A stretch of DNA of 64,000 nucleotides from a virus, in IMG/VR virus record IMGVR_UViG_3300032220_000699, positions 125,135 through 189,134 of that record. The stretch is one strand, 5' to 3'. Positions 24,345 through 45,198 of this stretch are shown one piece after another. The first letter of the stretch is position 1. Each line of letters opens with the position of its first letter. The notes under the pieces were generated by a model. The model was not told where the DNA came from, did no database searches, and was given only the letters and a program-made list of their open reading frames with translations. A program made the position numbers and the translations under genes.

Positions 24345-26051
24345 CTACTCATCCAGGTATTTATCGATCTCAAGCATATTAGGCATACCGAACATTACAT
24401 GAAAATATTCCAGCATGTTCGCGTTACCTAAACAAATACTTAAGTTCATTTCTCTAAAGGTATCCTCTCGAACACCTTCAATCTTAATAATTTCATTAAC
24501 ACAAGTTTCTTTAGATACATTACCTACTTGTGTACAAGAAGGATATGCAGCTGTGGCATCCTGGTCACAAACAACACCACGCATGTTAGTTACAACATCC
24601 GGATATTCTTCAAGACACTTAAGACCTTCGGCTAATAATAAGTTCTGAGGAAGAAGTTGAATCCAACCTTTTAAGTCAAGAGTATTATACTTCTTGACAT
24701 CGTATTCATCGTCTTCTTCTTCATCATCATCTGTTTCTATACTATCTGCTTCTAACTCTTCTTCTGGTTTAGCTTGTTTAGGAACAGTACCAATAACACG
24801 ATTACGTTCTAAACCAAATAAGAAAAGTGCATCAACAATCTTTTTAGGATTCGAATTGAACTTAGCAAAGTCAGTAATCGCTGCAAAGGAAGGAAGTGAA
24901 CTTTTCAAATCCTTAATCTTCTCGTCGAGTTCCAACATTCCGAGACAATCGTAAAAGTTATAGACAATATATTCAACAGGATAATTTTCCTGCATAAAGA
25001 TATGCCACTTTTCTCCTGAATAAGCGTCAGCTTCTTTAAACTTTAACTTGCCACCGATCTCTTCTTTCTTGAGAATAGCATCAAGTGCGTAACTAGGTTC
25101 TTCTTGTTTAGCCATACGAAGTTGACGATAAACACACATTGCGTCAATAACGTAGAACTTAGAAGTAGATGTAAGAGTATGCCACTGAAGAGATGGATTA
25201 ATTGGTTTAACCACACCAGAGGCTGTAACTTTCTTTTTGATACCTTGTTTATATCGACAAATACGATATTTACGAGGAACAGATTTATCACAGATAACAT
25301 CAACAGGATTGACGTTCTTTTCTTTAAGACGTTCTAGAATTCGCGGTATGTCGAAGTCCATGTTCCAAATTGCTAGAAAGTCAGGACCCCACTCATTTGC
25401 AACTTCAAAAACATCTGTTAACAAATCAACTTCATTATCAAATGTTCTTACAGTGATATCAAAATCTTTATACTTAGGGATATAGTAATCAACTGCGTCA
25501 TGAACACGTTTATCAAGATTACTAACATTCTTAACAAACCTACTTAGAACAGACGAGTGAATTCTATTACCAAAACAAATGGTGGCAATAATAACTTCTC
25601 GAGTAGCAATATCTGTTTCAATATCGAATGCAGAGACTTTATAATTCGATTGAACAAAATCATTGCGTTTTAAACTTGTATACTTAATCAATGATGTTGA
25701 CGTAATGTCATAACCATAGACATAAGGGGAATTTTTAATCTCATCGGGTTTGCTAGCCATCCAAGGTGAACCAAGCAAACCAGCGACAGCTTTGTTAATG
25801 TCAGACTGAATGACATCCTGTCGCATAAGACGATCAACTTCTTCAAACTCTTTCTTTTCTTTATGATTACGAAAAGCTTGTTGCGTTACCCAAATAGGAC
25901 GTTTAAAGTCTTTTGTTAAAAAAGTTTGTGGTTCTGTTGATCCATCTGCATAAGTAATTTGCTGCTTTACGTAATGCATATCTTCCCGGAAGTCTGTCCT
26001 AGGGATATGTATTGCAAAACGTATTTCTTTCTTTACAATGTCTTTAGCCAT
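24345..26051 (-). CDS. Split family-B DNA polymerase, N-terminal subunit (3'-5' exonuclease plus motif A), phiKZ gp82-like
   Basis: Exo I AFDIET, Exo II WNMDFDI, Exo III YNFYDC, motif A DQDATAAYPS. Confidence 0.85.
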   Translation of the reverse strand: MAKDIVKKEIRFAIHIPRTDFREDMHYVKQQITYADGSTEPQTFLTKDFKRPIWVTQQAFRNHKEKKEFEEVDRLMRQDVIQSDINKAVAGLLGSPWMASKPDEIKNSPYVYGYDITSTSLIKYTSLKRNDFVQSNYKVSAFDIETDIATREVIIATICFGNRIHSSVLSRFVKNVSNLDKRVHDAVDYYIPKYKDFDITVRTFDNEVDLLTDVFEVANEWGPDFLAIWNMDFDIPRILERLKEKNVNPVDVICDKSVPRKYRICRYKQGIKKKVTASGVVKPINPSLQWHTLTSTSKFYVIDAMCVYRQLRMAKQEEPSYALDAILKKEEIGGKLKFKEADAYSGEKWHIFMQENYPVEYIVYNFYDCLGMLELDEKIKDLKSSLPSFAAITDFAKFNSNPKKIVDALFLFGLERNRVIGTVPKQAKPEEELEADSIETDDDEEEDDEYDVKKYNTLDLKGWIQLLPQNLLLAEGLKCLEEYPDVVTNMRGVVCDQDATAAYPSCTQVGNVSKETCVNEIIKIEGVREDTFREMNLSICLGNANMLEYFHVMFGMPNMLEIDKYLDE

Positions 26052-27361: not shown

Positions 27362-27892
27362 TTAGTCCGGAATATCCGGAGCTTTAGGTTTAGCATTTTC
27401 AAGATCTTTAAGAACCTGTTCATTAACACGATTCTTTTTCTTATCTACTTCATCAACAACACGAAGCATCTCGATAATTTCAAACTTAGGACGATTCAAG
27501 AAATCATCAAAAGACATTCCTAGTTTCTTCCCAAGTTCTTTCATGATAAATGTAGAGAGATAACCATCCCAAAGAAAATCTTTAAGATAGTTCTCAGCAG
27601 GATTAAATTGAACTAGAGCTAACGGATTACTTGTAGTTGTGTGGTCACAAATACCAAATGTTGTCTCGTAGAGTTCAATAAAGAGCTGACGGCCGTAGAC
27701 ATAATTCGGGATCTTAGAACTTTTAATTGTTGCTAAGGTTTCTCGAATAAATCGATCGAAATCGACTTGATGACCAAAGCCGTAACCAGCTATATATCTT
27801 AGACTTCCCTCTCCATTATTTTCGAGATACGGAGAGTAATCAATGTAAAAAAAAGGTTCATTACGTCCAGAGGAATGACACTGGTCATATGC
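27362..27892 (-). CDS. Open frame downstream of the putative baseplate-hub chaperone; start unresolved (-1 frameshift or non-canonical start)
   Basis: Frame is open for 177 codons, but the first ATG/GTG/TTG is only 60 codons from the end. Upstream part reads as protein: YIAGYGFGHQVDFDRFIRETLATIKSSKIPNYVYGRQLFIELYETTFGICDH... Confidence 0.65.
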   Translation of the reverse strand, partial: AYDQCHSSGRNEPFFYIDYSPYLENNGEGSLRYIAGYGFGHQVDFDRFIRETLATIKSSKIPNYVYGRQLFIELYETTFGICDHTTTSNPLALVQFNPAENYLKDFLWDGYLSTFIMKELGKKLGMSFDDFLNRPKFEIIEMLRVVDEVDKKKNRVNEQVLKDLENAKPKAPDIPD

Positions 27893-29376
27893 TCAGCAAC
27901 GTTCTCATCATTCTGAGGAAATCCACAGTTAGGACACTTATAGTCAGGAATACCTACCAGACCAATCGTCGTACTAGACTTGAACTCAAGAATCTTATTT
28001 GTGATAGATGTACGAAGTGTATCGTCAGCCGAGAAGACTTCCAGCACTTCATTAATCGTAGGACGATCTGTGATAATGTTTTCATCAATTTCGATGTAAT
28101 CGATGAAGTGACTAAATTGACGCAGAATCGAAGAACGAACATATTGATCAAGAAGTTGAGTCTTAGCTTCAGCCTCGTCACCTTCTTCAACAATAAATGA
28201 ATCAATAGCAGAATTGATCTTGTTAACCCATGTCAGACCGTCTGCAGTATATTCAGCAAATGTCGGAATACGAAGTTTAAACTTGATCGATTCATTAACC
28301 TTAAATTCTGTACTGGACACACGAACATGTTCAGCAATAAACTTACGATAATGTTCGGCTGTAAGTGTATTAGGACGATTCTCAGTCATGATAAGCTTTT
28401 GTGCTTCGGTCAGACTGTTATTGTCAACCCACAACAGCTTACACATGTTAAGAACAGCCTTAACAGCGTGAGTACATTGTTCAACGTTGTTTACACAAGC
28501 CCGCTGATAATCAAACCCGTTAGGATAGATAGTTGCAGCAAATCCCCATGCGAGAATAGGGAAATCATGTATAAGTACATATTTGTCCAGGTCATTTTTA
28601 GTAATGTCCTTATTGTTTGTATTGTGCACATGTTTCATGATGAAGTCAAACAACTTCATATTAACATATACAGAGAAGTTGGTCAGTGTCAAACCAAGGG
28701 TAGAACGACCAATTGCAATCTTCTCTTTAAAGATTCCATTGTAGAAATCGATAAGATCTTTTTCAGCAGGCGGTTTAATGGTTACCCAAATACCTGAATG
28801 CGGAAGAGGAACAGAAAGAACATCACCAAGACCAAGTGCTTTGGAAACTTTAAGAACAGCCATAGCACCCTTAAGTTCACCATCAGCTTGTTTCATTTTA
28901 AGCGAACTAATAGTTTTCAATTCGCCTTCTTTGGTTTCTACACCTTGATCAAAACGAGAATTTTCATCGAAGAAACGATCTTGATAAATACCACCAGGAG
29001 TCTGGTAATCAATACCTTCTTCATTAATCTTTCGCCATTCTTTAAGATCAGGACGATTACCATCAAGTTCAAGATGCTTAAATTCCTGGATCTTTTTATT
29101 AAAGTTTAATACTCCCAAAGATGGAAGAGAAAATCTCCAGACAAATTTGGTTGGATCATAGTTATCACTACTCCAGTCAGAAGTAAGTTTTGCGTTAGGC
29201 TTCTTGACTGTTTGTTGTGGAACAGGCTCTTGCACTTGAGGTTGTTGATCTACGACAGTATCTGGTTCAGCTGTAACTGTCGTAGATTGTTCTACAGGCG
29301 AAGCTTCAGGTTCAATATTAAAGGTCGGTTCATCTTCACCGGGATTAGCCGGCAAAGCGTCAATTGGTTCAGACAT
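27799..29376 (-). CDS. Putative baseplate-hub assembly/chaperone protein (T4 gp26/gp51-like organisation)
   Basis: Start reassigned to ATG 29376 (AAGGTG SD). VPLPHSGIWVTIKPP near the start of the conserved part; C-terminal YKCPNCG Zn-knuckle. Confidence 0.45.
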   Translation of the reverse strand: MSEPIDALPANPGEDEPTFNIEPEASPVEQSTTVTAEPDTVVDQQPQVQEPVPQQTVKKPNAKLTSDWSSDNYDPTKFVWRFSLPSLGVLNFNKKIQEFKHLELDGNRPDLKEWRKINEEGIDYQTPGGIYQDRFFDENSRFDQGVETKEGELKTISSLKMKQADGELKGAMAVLKVSKALGLGDVLSVPLPHSGIWVTIKPPAEKDLIDFYNGIFKEKIAIGRSTLGLTLTNFSVYVNMKLFDFIMKHVHNTNNKDITKNDLDKYVLIHDFPILAWGFAATIYPNGFDYQRACVNNVEQCTHAVKAVLNMCKLLWVDNNSLTEAQKLIMTENRPNTLTAEHYRKFIAEHVRVSSTEFKVNESIKFKLRIPTFAEYTADGLTWVNKINSAIDSFIVEEGDEAEAKTQLLDQYVRSSILRQFSHFIDYIEIDENIITDRPTINEVLEVFSADDTLRTSITNKILEFKSSTTIGLVGIPDYKCPNCGFPQNDENVAEHMTSVIPLDVMNLFFTLITLRISKIMEREV

Positions 29377-29905
29377 TTTCATCACCTTTCTGTTCTGCAC
29401 CAGCTGGAGGTGTTGCAGATTCAACCACATTTACAGGAATGATTTCAGTGACAGTCATCATCAAATCACCCAGTGTCGGAGTGATAAGTGTAGCCAATTC
29501 AGAGAACAACGATTGGTATTGAATAGCGATACGATTATAGTTATTGAAATCAGTCATCGTTTCAATACGACCTGACAAATGTTCATGAAGAACACGAATG
29601 TCTTTAACCTTGAAACTAAAGTTATTGATATCGCTAAAGAACAATTCAACAACTTTATTAAAATGATCTGCCTTATCACCCAAGTTTTGGATAATCGCAG
29701 GGTTAGTGATAACTTCTTGAACTTGTGCAATAAATTGTACAATCTGACTACCGAGATCTTCTTTTAGCTTATTCAGATCTTCCCAAGAATATTCAGATGT
29801 TTTCAAGAATTCTTCGTCATGAGAAGTATCTATGCTGAAGCCAGTTTGAATAGCATGGTCAATTTCTCTAACAATTTGTTTCTTTTCTAATTTATCAGCG
29901 TTCAT
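29369..29905 (-). CDS. Hypothetical helical protein
   Basis: MNADKLEKK... ORF overlapping the next gene's start. Confidence 0.6.
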   Translation of the reverse strand: MNADKLEKKQIVREIDHAIQTGFSIDTSHDEEFLKTSEYSWEDLNKLKEDLGSQIVQFIAQVQEVITNPAIIQNLGDKADHFNKVVELFFSDINNFSFKVKDIRVLHEHLSGRIETMTDFNNYNRIAIQYQSLFSELATLITPTLGDLMMTVTEIIPVNVVESATPPAGAEQKGDENV

Positions 29906-30002
29906 TTTAGATACCCATGAAAAGTAGTGTGGTGAAATAATCATATAATACGAACATATAGTAAAAAAACAAAAAAGACTGGAGGGTAAACCTCCAGTCC
30001 TC

Positions 30003-43541: not shown

Positions 43542-44885
43542 TTACAGAGGAGCAACAGGTGTAGTTACTGCTAAACGAATAAACTCGTATTTAGGCAGTA
43601 CATAGATCTGATGTTTATCCAAGAAGTATGATAAATAATTAACACCGTCACGATTAATGATGGTGAAACGATAACTGGTATTACCGATAAGGTTATTAAA
43701 CAATTCAGTAGAGTTAGCACAGTTACAAACAGAGAGCATGCTTTCTAGCAGACTAACTAGATGTTGACTTCTAACAGACATGCGAGCAAAATCTGGATGT
43801 GTTGAAGTTACAGTAATAAAGTCACTAAAATAAGACTTAAAGTCCTGTAGACTATCTTCGGAGTAGTAACCATTTGTGATATGCAACATTATATTGTTGT
43901 AATCAAATGGAACTGCGTAAGTATTATTTCTTAAGAAAGTCGTATTGTTGTAGACTTTCACAAACTTATCAGTGTCAAATGTTTCATTGAAAGCTGAAGC
44001 AATCTGGCTAGCAATACTTGACTGACCAACTTGAGATGGAATAGCAATCTTGTCCCAACGCGGTGTGATAAAGAATTCATTAATATTCAGAATAGATGGG
44101 AATAGTTCTTCAACTGTTGTCCCAGGCATTCCGAGAGTATTGGTCATATAGCTGTATAATTCCAGCTTCAGAATGTAATCATAGTTACCTTGCAGACCGT
44201 AAATATTAAAAGCAAAGTAACAATTACGATAAATGTTCGTATTGGGAACACGATAAGGAATATTTAAAATCTTTGTATAAGTTGTTGGACTTAGTGCTTT
44301 ATTTTCTTCGATTCGTTCATTCAGAGTGAGCAAATCAAAGCTGTCCAGAGCAGAAATAAAGTTGCTAGGGTTATTGACAATCGAAGCATAATTTTCAAAT
44401 GGTAAGATGATACTAATATCGTATTCGGGATAGAACGTTCTGAAGATAGAATCACTCAACCAAATTTCACAATTAATATCATTGATAATAAACGAAAGAT
44501 AGTCAACAGAACGAATCAAATTAACATCGACTGTGTTATTATAAACAAGATTACCGACAGGAGTAGTTGGGTTAGCTTGGTTAAATTCACTAGTGAAAGC
44601 AATAATAACTTGTTGCTTTGTTGTGATTTGAGTTGTTGACAAAAATGAAGATAACGACGTAACGACATTAATAACATCATTAACTTCATTTTGGGATAAT
44701 GATGTTAGATCTGTTGCACTAAATAAAAAAAGAGAGTATAATGGATTTGTTGTAGAGAAATACTGTTGTTTGTTTTTAGAATAAGTTAGGGCTATATCGG
44801 AAAGTTCATATAGTGGCGACACTACGCTGCTAGTATTATCGATAAAGTTATCACTTGTGATAAACGCTTTTATTTCTTTAGACAT
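43542..44885 (-). CDS. Probable virion structural protein
   Basis: Start ATG 44885 (AAGGA SD), ATTTTTTGA motif upstream. Confidence 0.55.
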   Translation of the reverse strand: MSKEIKAFITSDNFIDNTSSVVSPLYELSDIALTYSKNKQQYFSTTNPLYSLFLFSATDLTSLSQNEVNDVINVVTSLSSFLSTTQITTKQQVIIAFTSEFNQANPTTPVGNLVYNNTVDVNLIRSVDYLSFIINDINCEIWLSDSIFRTFYPEYDISIILPFENYASIVNNPSNFISALDSFDLLTLNERIEENKALSPTTYTKILNIPYRVPNTNIYRNCYFAFNIYGLQGNYDYILKLELYSYMTNTLGMPGTTVEELFPSILNINEFFITPRWDKIAIPSQVGQSSIASQIASAFNETFDTDKFVKVYNNTTFLRNNTYAVPFDYNNIMLHITNGYYSEDSLQDFKSYFSDFITVTSTHPDFARMSVRSQHLVSLLESMLSVCNCANSTELFNNLIGNTSYRFTIINRDGVNYLSYFLDKHQIYVLPKYEFIRLAVTTPVAPL

Positions 44886-44940
44886 ATTAAATTCCTTCAA
44901 AAGTCAATTAGTCAAAAAATCTATTAAAAGGAGATAGCCC

Positions 44941-45198
44941 ATGTACTTCAAAATTTTAGAAGCTTTCATCCTAAAGACCTTGTTCAATAAGGGTGAATAT
45001 AACATTACCAGTAAAGAGTTTAACCCTATTAAGTTCTTTACTATTCTTCTCTTGGTTGTTAATGTTGTCTTTACTTTTTATTTGTTAACTCAAATGAGTA
45101 AAGTTCACGATGTTATTCAAGAGAAATGTCCGCAAATTTTCACAGAAAAAAAAGAACCTGTGAAAGATATAAAGAAAGTAACAGATAAGAAGACCTAG
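44941..45198 (+). CDS. Small single-pass membrane protein
   Basis: Hydrophobic FFTILLLVVNVVFTFYLL, basic C-tail, AGGAG SD. Confidence 0.6.
   Translation: MYFKILEAFILKTLFNKGEYNITSKEFNPIKFFTILLLVVNVVFTFYLLTQMSKVHDVIQEKCPQIFTEKKEPVKDIKKVTDKKT

Follow-up and report, generated by a model that had tools for sequence, protein, structure and literature searches.

Two frames at the end of a gp77 gene

The 64,000-nucleotide stretch analysed here (the window; positions 125,135 to 189,134 of the IMG/VR virus record IMGVR_UViG_3300032220_000699) carries on its minus strand a gene of the phiKZ gp77 family. Overlapping the end of this gene is a second open frame, which has no canonical start codon for 255 nt. 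The overlap contains a run of eight U residues. Judging from the comparisons described below, reading very probably slips back by one base at the U run in the gp77 family. We propose that the gp77/cg18 locus undergoes programmed -1 recoding, most likely by ribosomal frameshifting, and would thereby yield two isoforms; we put the probability of this reading at roughly 0.6. The features of the locus, in window numbering and all on the minus strand, are the following:

27799..29430, minus strand: upstream gene in the zero frame (phiKZ gp77 / cg18 family, with a C-terminal CxxC zinc knuckle), the longest open reading frame (ORF), P0001, of 543 codons from its first ATG, with the stop TAA at 27799-27801.
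27362..27895, minus strand: whole open -1 frame including its bounding stops, TGA 27893-27895 upstream and TAA 27362-27364 at the end.
27847..27854, minus strand: slippery run U8 (T8; A8 on the plus strand), zero frame CUU UUU UUU ACA.
27365..27847, minus strand: predicted trans-frame (-1) extension of 161 codons, YIDYSPYLENNGEGSLRYIAGYGFGH...APDIPD, supported by a phrog_12109 match, the alignment of homologs and an AlphaFold2 model.
27542..27544, minus strand: ATG, the first canonical start in the -1 frame, with no ATG, GTG or TTG earlier in frame.
27791..27793, minus strand: ATA codon, proposed earlier as an alternative start, aligned with an internal V/I/L column of the first conserved block of the extension.
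27809..27836, minus strand: possible stimulatory hairpin, in the window's clade only, with an 8-bp stem CUCUCCGU / AUGGAGAG and a 12-nt loop, 10 nt past the run.

The second frame comprises 176 sense codons, from 27892 down to its TAA, and is the -1 frame of the upstream gene, with an overlap of 94 nt. A preliminary description of this stretch, made from the letters alone, had noted that the frame is open back to the TGA without ATG, GTG or TTG, that it overlaps the end of the upstream gene in exactly the -1 frame, and that the A8 of the plus strand lies in the upstream gene as a slippery heptamer. All three statements were borne out. The heptamer U_UUU_UUU is phased in the zero frame at 27847-27853, as two UUU codons with a U before them. 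The run falls where the last helix predicted for the upstream protein begins, 55 nt before the zero-frame stop, and this protein ends in ...VIPLDVMNLFFTLITLRISKIMEREV (cited also as ...YKCPNCGFPQNDENVAEHMTSVIPLDVMNLFFTLITLRISKIMEREV). Following a tandem -1 slip, reading would go on with TAC (27845-27847) and the junction would be ...NLFF/YIDYSPY..., the sequence that the preliminary description had given; our reading of the codons agrees with it. The predicted peptide spanning the junction (...FF/Y...) is ...NLFFYIDYSPYLENNGEGSLR in this phage and ...STFFYFGGLEVK... in phiKZ.

The start of the upstream gene is likely the ATG at 29382 or 29376 (MKMSEP...), rather than that at 29430, because the relatives start at the equivalent of MKMSEP. 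The ORF start at 29430 falls within the preceding 191-codon gene (29369..29944); from either of the two later ATGs the overlap with the end of that gene is reduced to a few bases. With the revised start the two products would likely have about 525-527 and 671-673 amino acids.

In a search of the PHROG profiles, the upstream protein matched phrog_4585 with an E value of 1.9e-93 over its residues 120-542. The match reached profile position 545 of 551, and the zero-frame end therefore belongs to the family. A tblastn search with the same protein matched 213 phage records, all of them phiKZ-like jumbo phages, including PHIKZ077 (E 3e-31), PhiPA3 gp074, 201phi2-1 gp136, SPN3US gp39 and Goslar gp081; RAY gp267 is a further member of the gp77 family. 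This family is core gene cg18 of the chimallin-encoding jumbo phages, listed as 'hypothetical protein' (Prichard et al. 2023, PMC10299810, supplement). The window protein belongs to it by a full-length match that includes the PLPHSGIW motif and the C-terminal CxxC...FF. In our alignments A1 and A6, residues G185, L192, S195, G196, C482, C485, F510 and F511 were nearly invariant. The -1 product matched phrog_12109 (E 3.6e-15), the match starting just past the upstream stop. The PHROG families matched have no assigned function, and Pfam held no family for either product. Searched by blastn against the phage collection, the region gave no match, and relatives were found at the protein level only.

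A chimallin homolog is encoded in the same genome, outside the window, at G000:C1:34299-36146. It is an open frame of 723 amino acids that matched phrog_4795 (nuclear shell protein; E 2.2e-69, profile positions 17-676 of 677). A single-sequence search with the phiKZ chimallin (gp54) had missed it, and the PHROG profile found it. Because of the phrog_4795 match, the phage is a chimallin-encoding (phiKZ-like) jumbo phage, in agreement with the relationship suspected in the preliminary description.

Conservation of the run and of the frame relation

We compared the locus in 21 GenBank phages and 83 IMG/VR loci, which after removal of duplicates gave 84 distinct loci, including phiKZ, PhiPA3, 201phi2-1, SPN3US, Goslar, RSL2, Bacillus phage AgentSmith and IMG/VR contigs. 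Xanthomonas phage RTH11 was treated apart. Of the 84 distinct related loci examined other than that of the window, 83 share its layout. At 40% protein identity the set divides into 21 lineages. A downstream ORF was present in the -1 frame in all 84 loci and extended 123-174 amino acids past the upstream stop. In all of them, too, the -1 frame was open backwards across the T run, located at the Phe-Phe that is conserved in the upstream protein, whereas the +1 frame was open over the same stretch in 34 of the 84. Calculated from base composition, the summed log10 probability of meeting no -1 stop by chance was -38.9 from the run to the upstream stop and -96.9 from the run to the first canonical start, sums that overstate independence since the 84 loci are related. 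In 27 loci the -1 frame opened 0-17 nt upstream of the run, and in no locus downstream of it, which is the pattern expected if this frame is needed exactly from the run on.

The run itself consisted of T8 in 17 loci, T7 in 44, T6 in 16 and T5 in 7. A perfect U_UUU_UUN heptamer in the zero frame was found in 71/84 loci; about 15% were expected, given the Phe-Phe, from the TTT/TTC use of each gene and its third-position T content. GC-rich phages kept T8 despite the scarcity of TTT elsewhere in the gene, where the TTT/TTC counts were 0/17 in RSL2, 0/13 in L040 and 1/9 in L043. Twenty of the 21 lineages possessed the heptamer, the exception being the Noxifer-type group with G_UUU_UUC or G_UUU_UUU. 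Whether homologs conserve the slippery run had been suggested as a check of the proposed frameshift, and they do. Both the site (71/84 versus about 15%) and the frame relation (-1 frame open in 84/84, +1 frame in 34/84) are conserved beyond what the protein requires.

The run stood out in its own genome as well. We estimated expected homopolymer counts by codon shuffles of the ORFs of this 189-kb genome, counting on the sense strand. T7 was observed 4 times versus 25.5 expected, T8 once (the run discussed here) versus 7.8, and T9 or longer once versus 3.3; A7 was observed 5 times versus 42 and A8 once versus 16.9. Over the whole genome, sense-strand homopolymers in ORFs were 6- to 17-fold rarer than codon shuffles predict, and A and T runs of at least 7 were scarce in all phases. 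The U8 at 27847-27854 is the sole T8 within a long ORF. Since sense-strand T runs are so strongly depleted in the ORFs of this genome, the T8 run is no chance feature.

Ribosome, polymerase or a separate start

Across the family we observe the signal and the frame relation, both conserved at the nucleotide level; we infer the place of the slip (the ribosome rather than the polymerase), its efficiency and the roles of the isoforms. In the mechanism that we favour, most ribosomes would read CUU UUU UUU ACA in frame and stop 18 codons on, releasing a protein of ~525 amino acids that ends in an amphipathic helix. A fraction would slip by -1 on U_UUU_UUU, two tRNA-Phe re-pairing with UUU UUU. These ribosomes would then read UAC and 161 codons in all, and the product would reach ~671 amino acids. 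By the slip, the last helix would be swapped for a flexible linker followed by a conserved helical domain. The preliminary description had already proposed that a -1 shift fuses the zinc-knuckle protein to an extension of ~160 residues; the 161 codons counted here, the -1 frame open in every locus and the conserved heptamer support this. U_UUU_UUN is a classical heptamer for tandem slippage on the ribosome, as in the U_UUU_UUA of HIV-1 gag-pol. The ribosome is also favoured by the phasing of the T6 loci, 10 of 16 of which form a perfect heptamer.

Several observations weigh against this explanation, in addition to the relatedness of the loci allowed for above. The position of the run in codons is tied to the conserved Phe-Phe dipeptide, and the phasing of the heptamer alone does not therefore favour the ribosome over the polymerase. 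No stimulatory RNA structure common to the family was found, the 75 nt past the run having a mean z of -0.40 versus -0.45 for the control. The sites were imperfect in 13/84 loci (G_UUU_UUU, G_UUU_UUC or T5), most of which have a start-type codon soon past the upstream stop; some of these lineages may also, or instead, initiate independently. A full-text literature search found no proteomic or ribosome-profiling paper on this locus. In the window's own clade, the hairpin past the run had a minimum free energy of -20.0 and a z of -2.07. The same stem was present in L003 and L023, with no covariation.

A slip of the RNA polymerase would give the same protein. The polymerase, probably the phage's own multisubunit non-virion enzyme inside the phage nucleus, might stutter on T8 and add one U in some transcripts; the U9 mRNA would then encode ...NLFFYIDY..., and the junction peptide is identical for ribosomal and polymerase slippage. 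We consider this possible, but rather unlikely. Some properties of the family would fit it well. The runs exceed the minimal heptamer, with T7-T8 in 61/84 loci, and in about half of the loci from GC-rich phages the second Phe is encoded by TTT, although this codon is rare elsewhere in those genes (roughly 15-20% of Phe codons). Polymerase slippage requires no stimulatory structure, and none was seen family-wide. The depletion of A and T runs of at least 7 in ORFs in all phases would be expected if homopolymers were hazardous in themselves. A phage-encoded polymerase is also the one factor besides the ribosome that is common to hosts from Bacillus to Pseudomonas, and conservation across these hosts would follow since the polymerase travels with the phage. 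Taken to the whole family, it would amount to programmed transcriptional slippage by the phage multisubunit RNA polymerase in the phage nucleus, in Chimalliviridae infecting Bacillus to Pseudomonas, a proposal that we advance only tentatively. It would mean that the ratio of isoforms is set in a nucleus-like compartment, independently of the translation apparatus of the host. On the other hand, 16 loci have only T6 and 7 only T5, lengths that are short for efficient polymerase slippage, and the perfect heptamers among the T6 loci, like the classical U_UUU_UUN itself, point to the ribosome. We know of no slippage study of a phiKZ-type non-virion polymerase.

The RTH11 record bears on the same question. 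In this phage (L005, OQ790161.1; positions 2360-2600) the run is T7 (ATT TTT TTA CCC) where the homologous zero-frame tail needs T8. As annotated, the upstream coding sequence (CDS) continues in a junk frame, which leaves the conserved tail, FFTLLGQRTSLLLGSAPL*, outside the reading frame. A related IMG/VR contig, L040, has T8. Such a difference in length would be tolerable if the run length of the mRNA were heterogeneous, as under polymerase slippage, but is more simply explained as a homopolymer miscall. We regard the T7 as probably a miscall in the record and otherwise as a real length variant.

Known recoding systems offer partial parallels to the gp77 locus. In the tail assembly chaperones lambda G/GT and P2 E/E+E' of long-tailed phages, as is proposed here, a slippery heptamer close to the 3' end of the gene serves for a -1 shift that adds a domain from the overlapping next ORF to a minority of the chains, the arrangement is kept despite sequence divergence, and there is often no clear stimulatory structure. 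The comparison with G/GT and E/E' in the preliminary description thus holds for the mechanism; it fails for the locus and probably for the protein family. The neighbours here are a DNA polymerase, an NTP pyrophosphohydrolase and a UvsX-like recombinase rather than the tail tube and tape measure genes between which G/GT lies, and the upstream protein has ~525 amino acids and a zinc knuckle, as compared to ~100-150 amino acids. PHROG and Pfam searches of both products gave no match to any tail-chaperone family. A tail-chaperone locus was considered and rejected, the pair not lying between tail tube and tape measure genes. T7 gene 10 (10A/10B) and Escherichia coli dnaX (tau/gamma) share with the mechanism proposed for gp77 a -1 slip near the gene end and isoforms that differ only at the C terminus. 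The slip site of T7 gene 10, G_GUU_UUC, is U-rich and resembles the imperfect G_UUU_UUC of the Noxifer-type lineage. The extension of T7 10B is short, however, whereas here a whole conserved domain of ~160 amino acids would be added. In dnaX the shift shortens the protein, with a Shine-Dalgarno-like (SD-like) element upstream and a stem-loop downstream as stimulators, and no such elements are shared in the gp77 family. Examples of transcriptional slippage (the A9 of Thermus dnaX, the A/T runs of IS elements, potyvirus P3N-PIPO and paramyxovirus P) are the counterpart of polymerase slippage at this locus, where a homopolymer would open the -1 frame by one inserted mRNA base and the protein outcome would equal that of ribosomal slippage; the T5-T6 runs in 23/84 loci here are short for bacterial-type polymerases.

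The downstream frame might be a separate gene instead, initiated at a near-cognate codon (the AUA at 27791-27793 behind GGAGAGGG) or by reinitiation after the UAA, the U run being incidental to the Phe-Phe. We judge this improbable. An SD-like GGAGAGGG does lie 13 nt before the ATA, but this stretch coincides with the zero-frame codons for MEREV and with the local hairpin's 3' arm. The ATA, an alternative start in the preliminary description, did not stand up to alignment. Its column is an internal hydrophobic residue with no conserved start in the homologs, and the codons found there were GTC (20), ATC (11), GTT (10), GTA (10), GTG (7), ATA (5), ATT (5) and others, with ATT in the closest relative, L003. 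In the alignment of the 84 -1 products no column before column 113 was enriched in start-type codons. A canonical start close past the upstream stop, annotated as such, exists in SPN3US gp40 (ATG at +45), PhiPA3 gp073 and Noxifer (TTG at +24), and there are PHROG families of ~120-180 amino acids for the downstream protein. However, at the position of the SPN3US gp40 ATG Wellington has a Leu codon that is not a start codon, and the residues before it are conserved (LDQEDVPSEQIITTLK versus LDSEHVSTETIITTLK). A separate gene also fails to account for a -1 frame that is open as far back as the run in 84/84 loci, and for the retention of TTT TTT after a T in spite of the codon bias.

The conserved residues of the extension give the same picture. 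Four blocks were recognized in the alignment of the 84 -1 products: ..HV...FG., LLreaYd..yGI..dH, PLs.V..hp.ED and lSl.EFL.lPr. In the window they read YI..GFG, LFIELYETTFGI.DH, PLALV.FNPAEN and MSFDDFLNRPK. Between one and four of these blocks precede the first canonical start in the window and in L003, L023, AgentSmith, phiKZ, MadMel, L044, L048 and L071. In the window three of the four blocks precede the ATG at 27542-27544, and a 60-amino acid product from there would miss most of the domain. In phiKZ the gp77 run is T7 (ACT TTT TTT ACT), the -1 frame opens 12 nt before it, and there is no canonical start until 219 nt past the gp77 stop, where the annotated PHIKZ076.4 begins. The unannotated stretch before 076.4 is conserved with PhiPA3, 201phi2-1 and Noxifer (..RYSRL....D.NGH....FG..). 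PHIKZ076.4 (80 amino acids) is the tail of a 171-codon -1 frame (L008, NC_004629, 2508-3023). In the window phage, the downstream 'gene' is best explained as the putative C-terminal module of a second isoform, without a start of its own.

A one-base assembly error in the homopolymer or a recent frameshift mutation, which would leave a single ORF or a pseudogene, is most improbable: homopolymers are error-prone in sequencing and the RTH11 record seems to differ in length at this run, but the same frame relation recurs in 84 distinct loci, whose source isolates and metagenomes were sequenced independently of one another, T8 and frames are identical in the independently assembled close relatives L003 and L023, and both frames code, the zero-frame tail past the run matching its profile to the end and being modelled as a confident helix. 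The homopolymer sequencing error raised in the preliminary description is excluded by the matching layout of these independent assemblies.

Products, annotation and genome context

The AlphaFold2 model of the upstream protein, built on a 66-sequence alignment, had a mean predicted local distance difference test score (pLDDT) of 81 and a predicted TM-score (pTM) of 0.80. The Phe-Phe lies at the start of the last model helix, residues 506-525, with a mean pLDDT of 84-93 over the 10-residue blocks of this helix. The extension was modelled (pLDDT 79.9) as a linker of ~30 residues with low confidence and a helical domain with a final helix of 32 residues. In the models, the shift would thus replace the terminal helix by a linker and a helical domain. 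Foldseek against the PDB gave no match at E<=0.001 for either model, and the best Z of 5.1 obtained by VIA-align wide for both models concerned helical segments only and is within the noise for helical models. Profile searches of the PDB sequences gave none at E<=1, and the NCBIfam search only sub-threshold noise.

There is a weak lead that the isoforms may be non-virion assembly or chaperone-type factors. PF12322 (T4_baseplate; the baseplate hub assembly proteins gp26/gp51 of T4) was matched by 4/66 relatives, with a best E value of 5.2e-5; the window protein had no match to it even at E<=10. With hhalign, A6 gave a probability of 22% versus T4 gp26 and 1% versus gp51, and one ESM-Atlas cluster with 14% PF12322 members had a TM of 0.47. 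In the 201phi2-1 record the neighbouring gp138 is marked as found by mass spectrometry and gp136 carries no such note, which weakly fits a non-virion factor.

In the GenBank records a joined CDS was annotated in 0/21 of those examined. The downstream ORF is entered there in one of three ways: cut short (phiKZ 076.4, AgentSmith gp12, CR5 gp041), begun at an arbitrary point within the overlap (MadMel, Wellington, RTH11), or as a small gene in its own right (SPN3US gp40, Goslar gp082). Full-text literature searches on phiKZ, Chimalliviridae and jumbo phages found no paper describing the event. None of the words 'frameshift', 'slippage' and 'recoding' occurs in the 2025 Annual Review on nucleus-forming phages, and the PRFect paper mentions neither jumbo phages nor phiKZ. 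The recoding site in gp77/cg18 appears to be undescribed; programmed -1 recoding in dsDNA phages as a kind is known.

As cg18/gp77 is one of roughly 70 core genes that define the nucleus-forming jumbo phages, recoding at this locus, if real, would give every member of the family an additional unannotated isoform of ~670 amino acids, and the ORF after gp77 would be mis-annotated in public records. Knock-outs, Tn-seq calls and interaction screens should take both ORFs as one unit with two products. The recoding signal would then be conserved among phages that infect very different hosts and keep transcription apart from translation, and for this reason the choice between ribosome and polymerase is directly testable in phiKZ, Goslar or SPN3US.

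The source genome of 189 kb (37% GC) is from an uncultivated phage. Among named phages, Bacillus phage AgentSmith is its nearest relative, with 53% identity. The neighbours of the locus are the DNA polymerase (24345-26051), the NTP pyrophosphohydrolase, small ORFs, a gp78-like ORF and the UvsX-like recombinase.

Several of the homopolymer runs that survive in this genome fall in the first 20 codons of called ORFs and may precede the true starts. An A8 run at 45146-45153 (plus strand), considered as a further possible recoding site, was discarded: the 86-codon ORF (44938..45198) towards whose end it falls has no overlapping downstream frame and is followed by a terminator-like hairpin (AAGACCTAGG...CCTAGGTCTT). 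A 453-codon gene at 43542-44903 (minus strand) contains CTT TTT TTA, a T7 with a zero-frame U_UUU_UUA heptamer, near codon 56.

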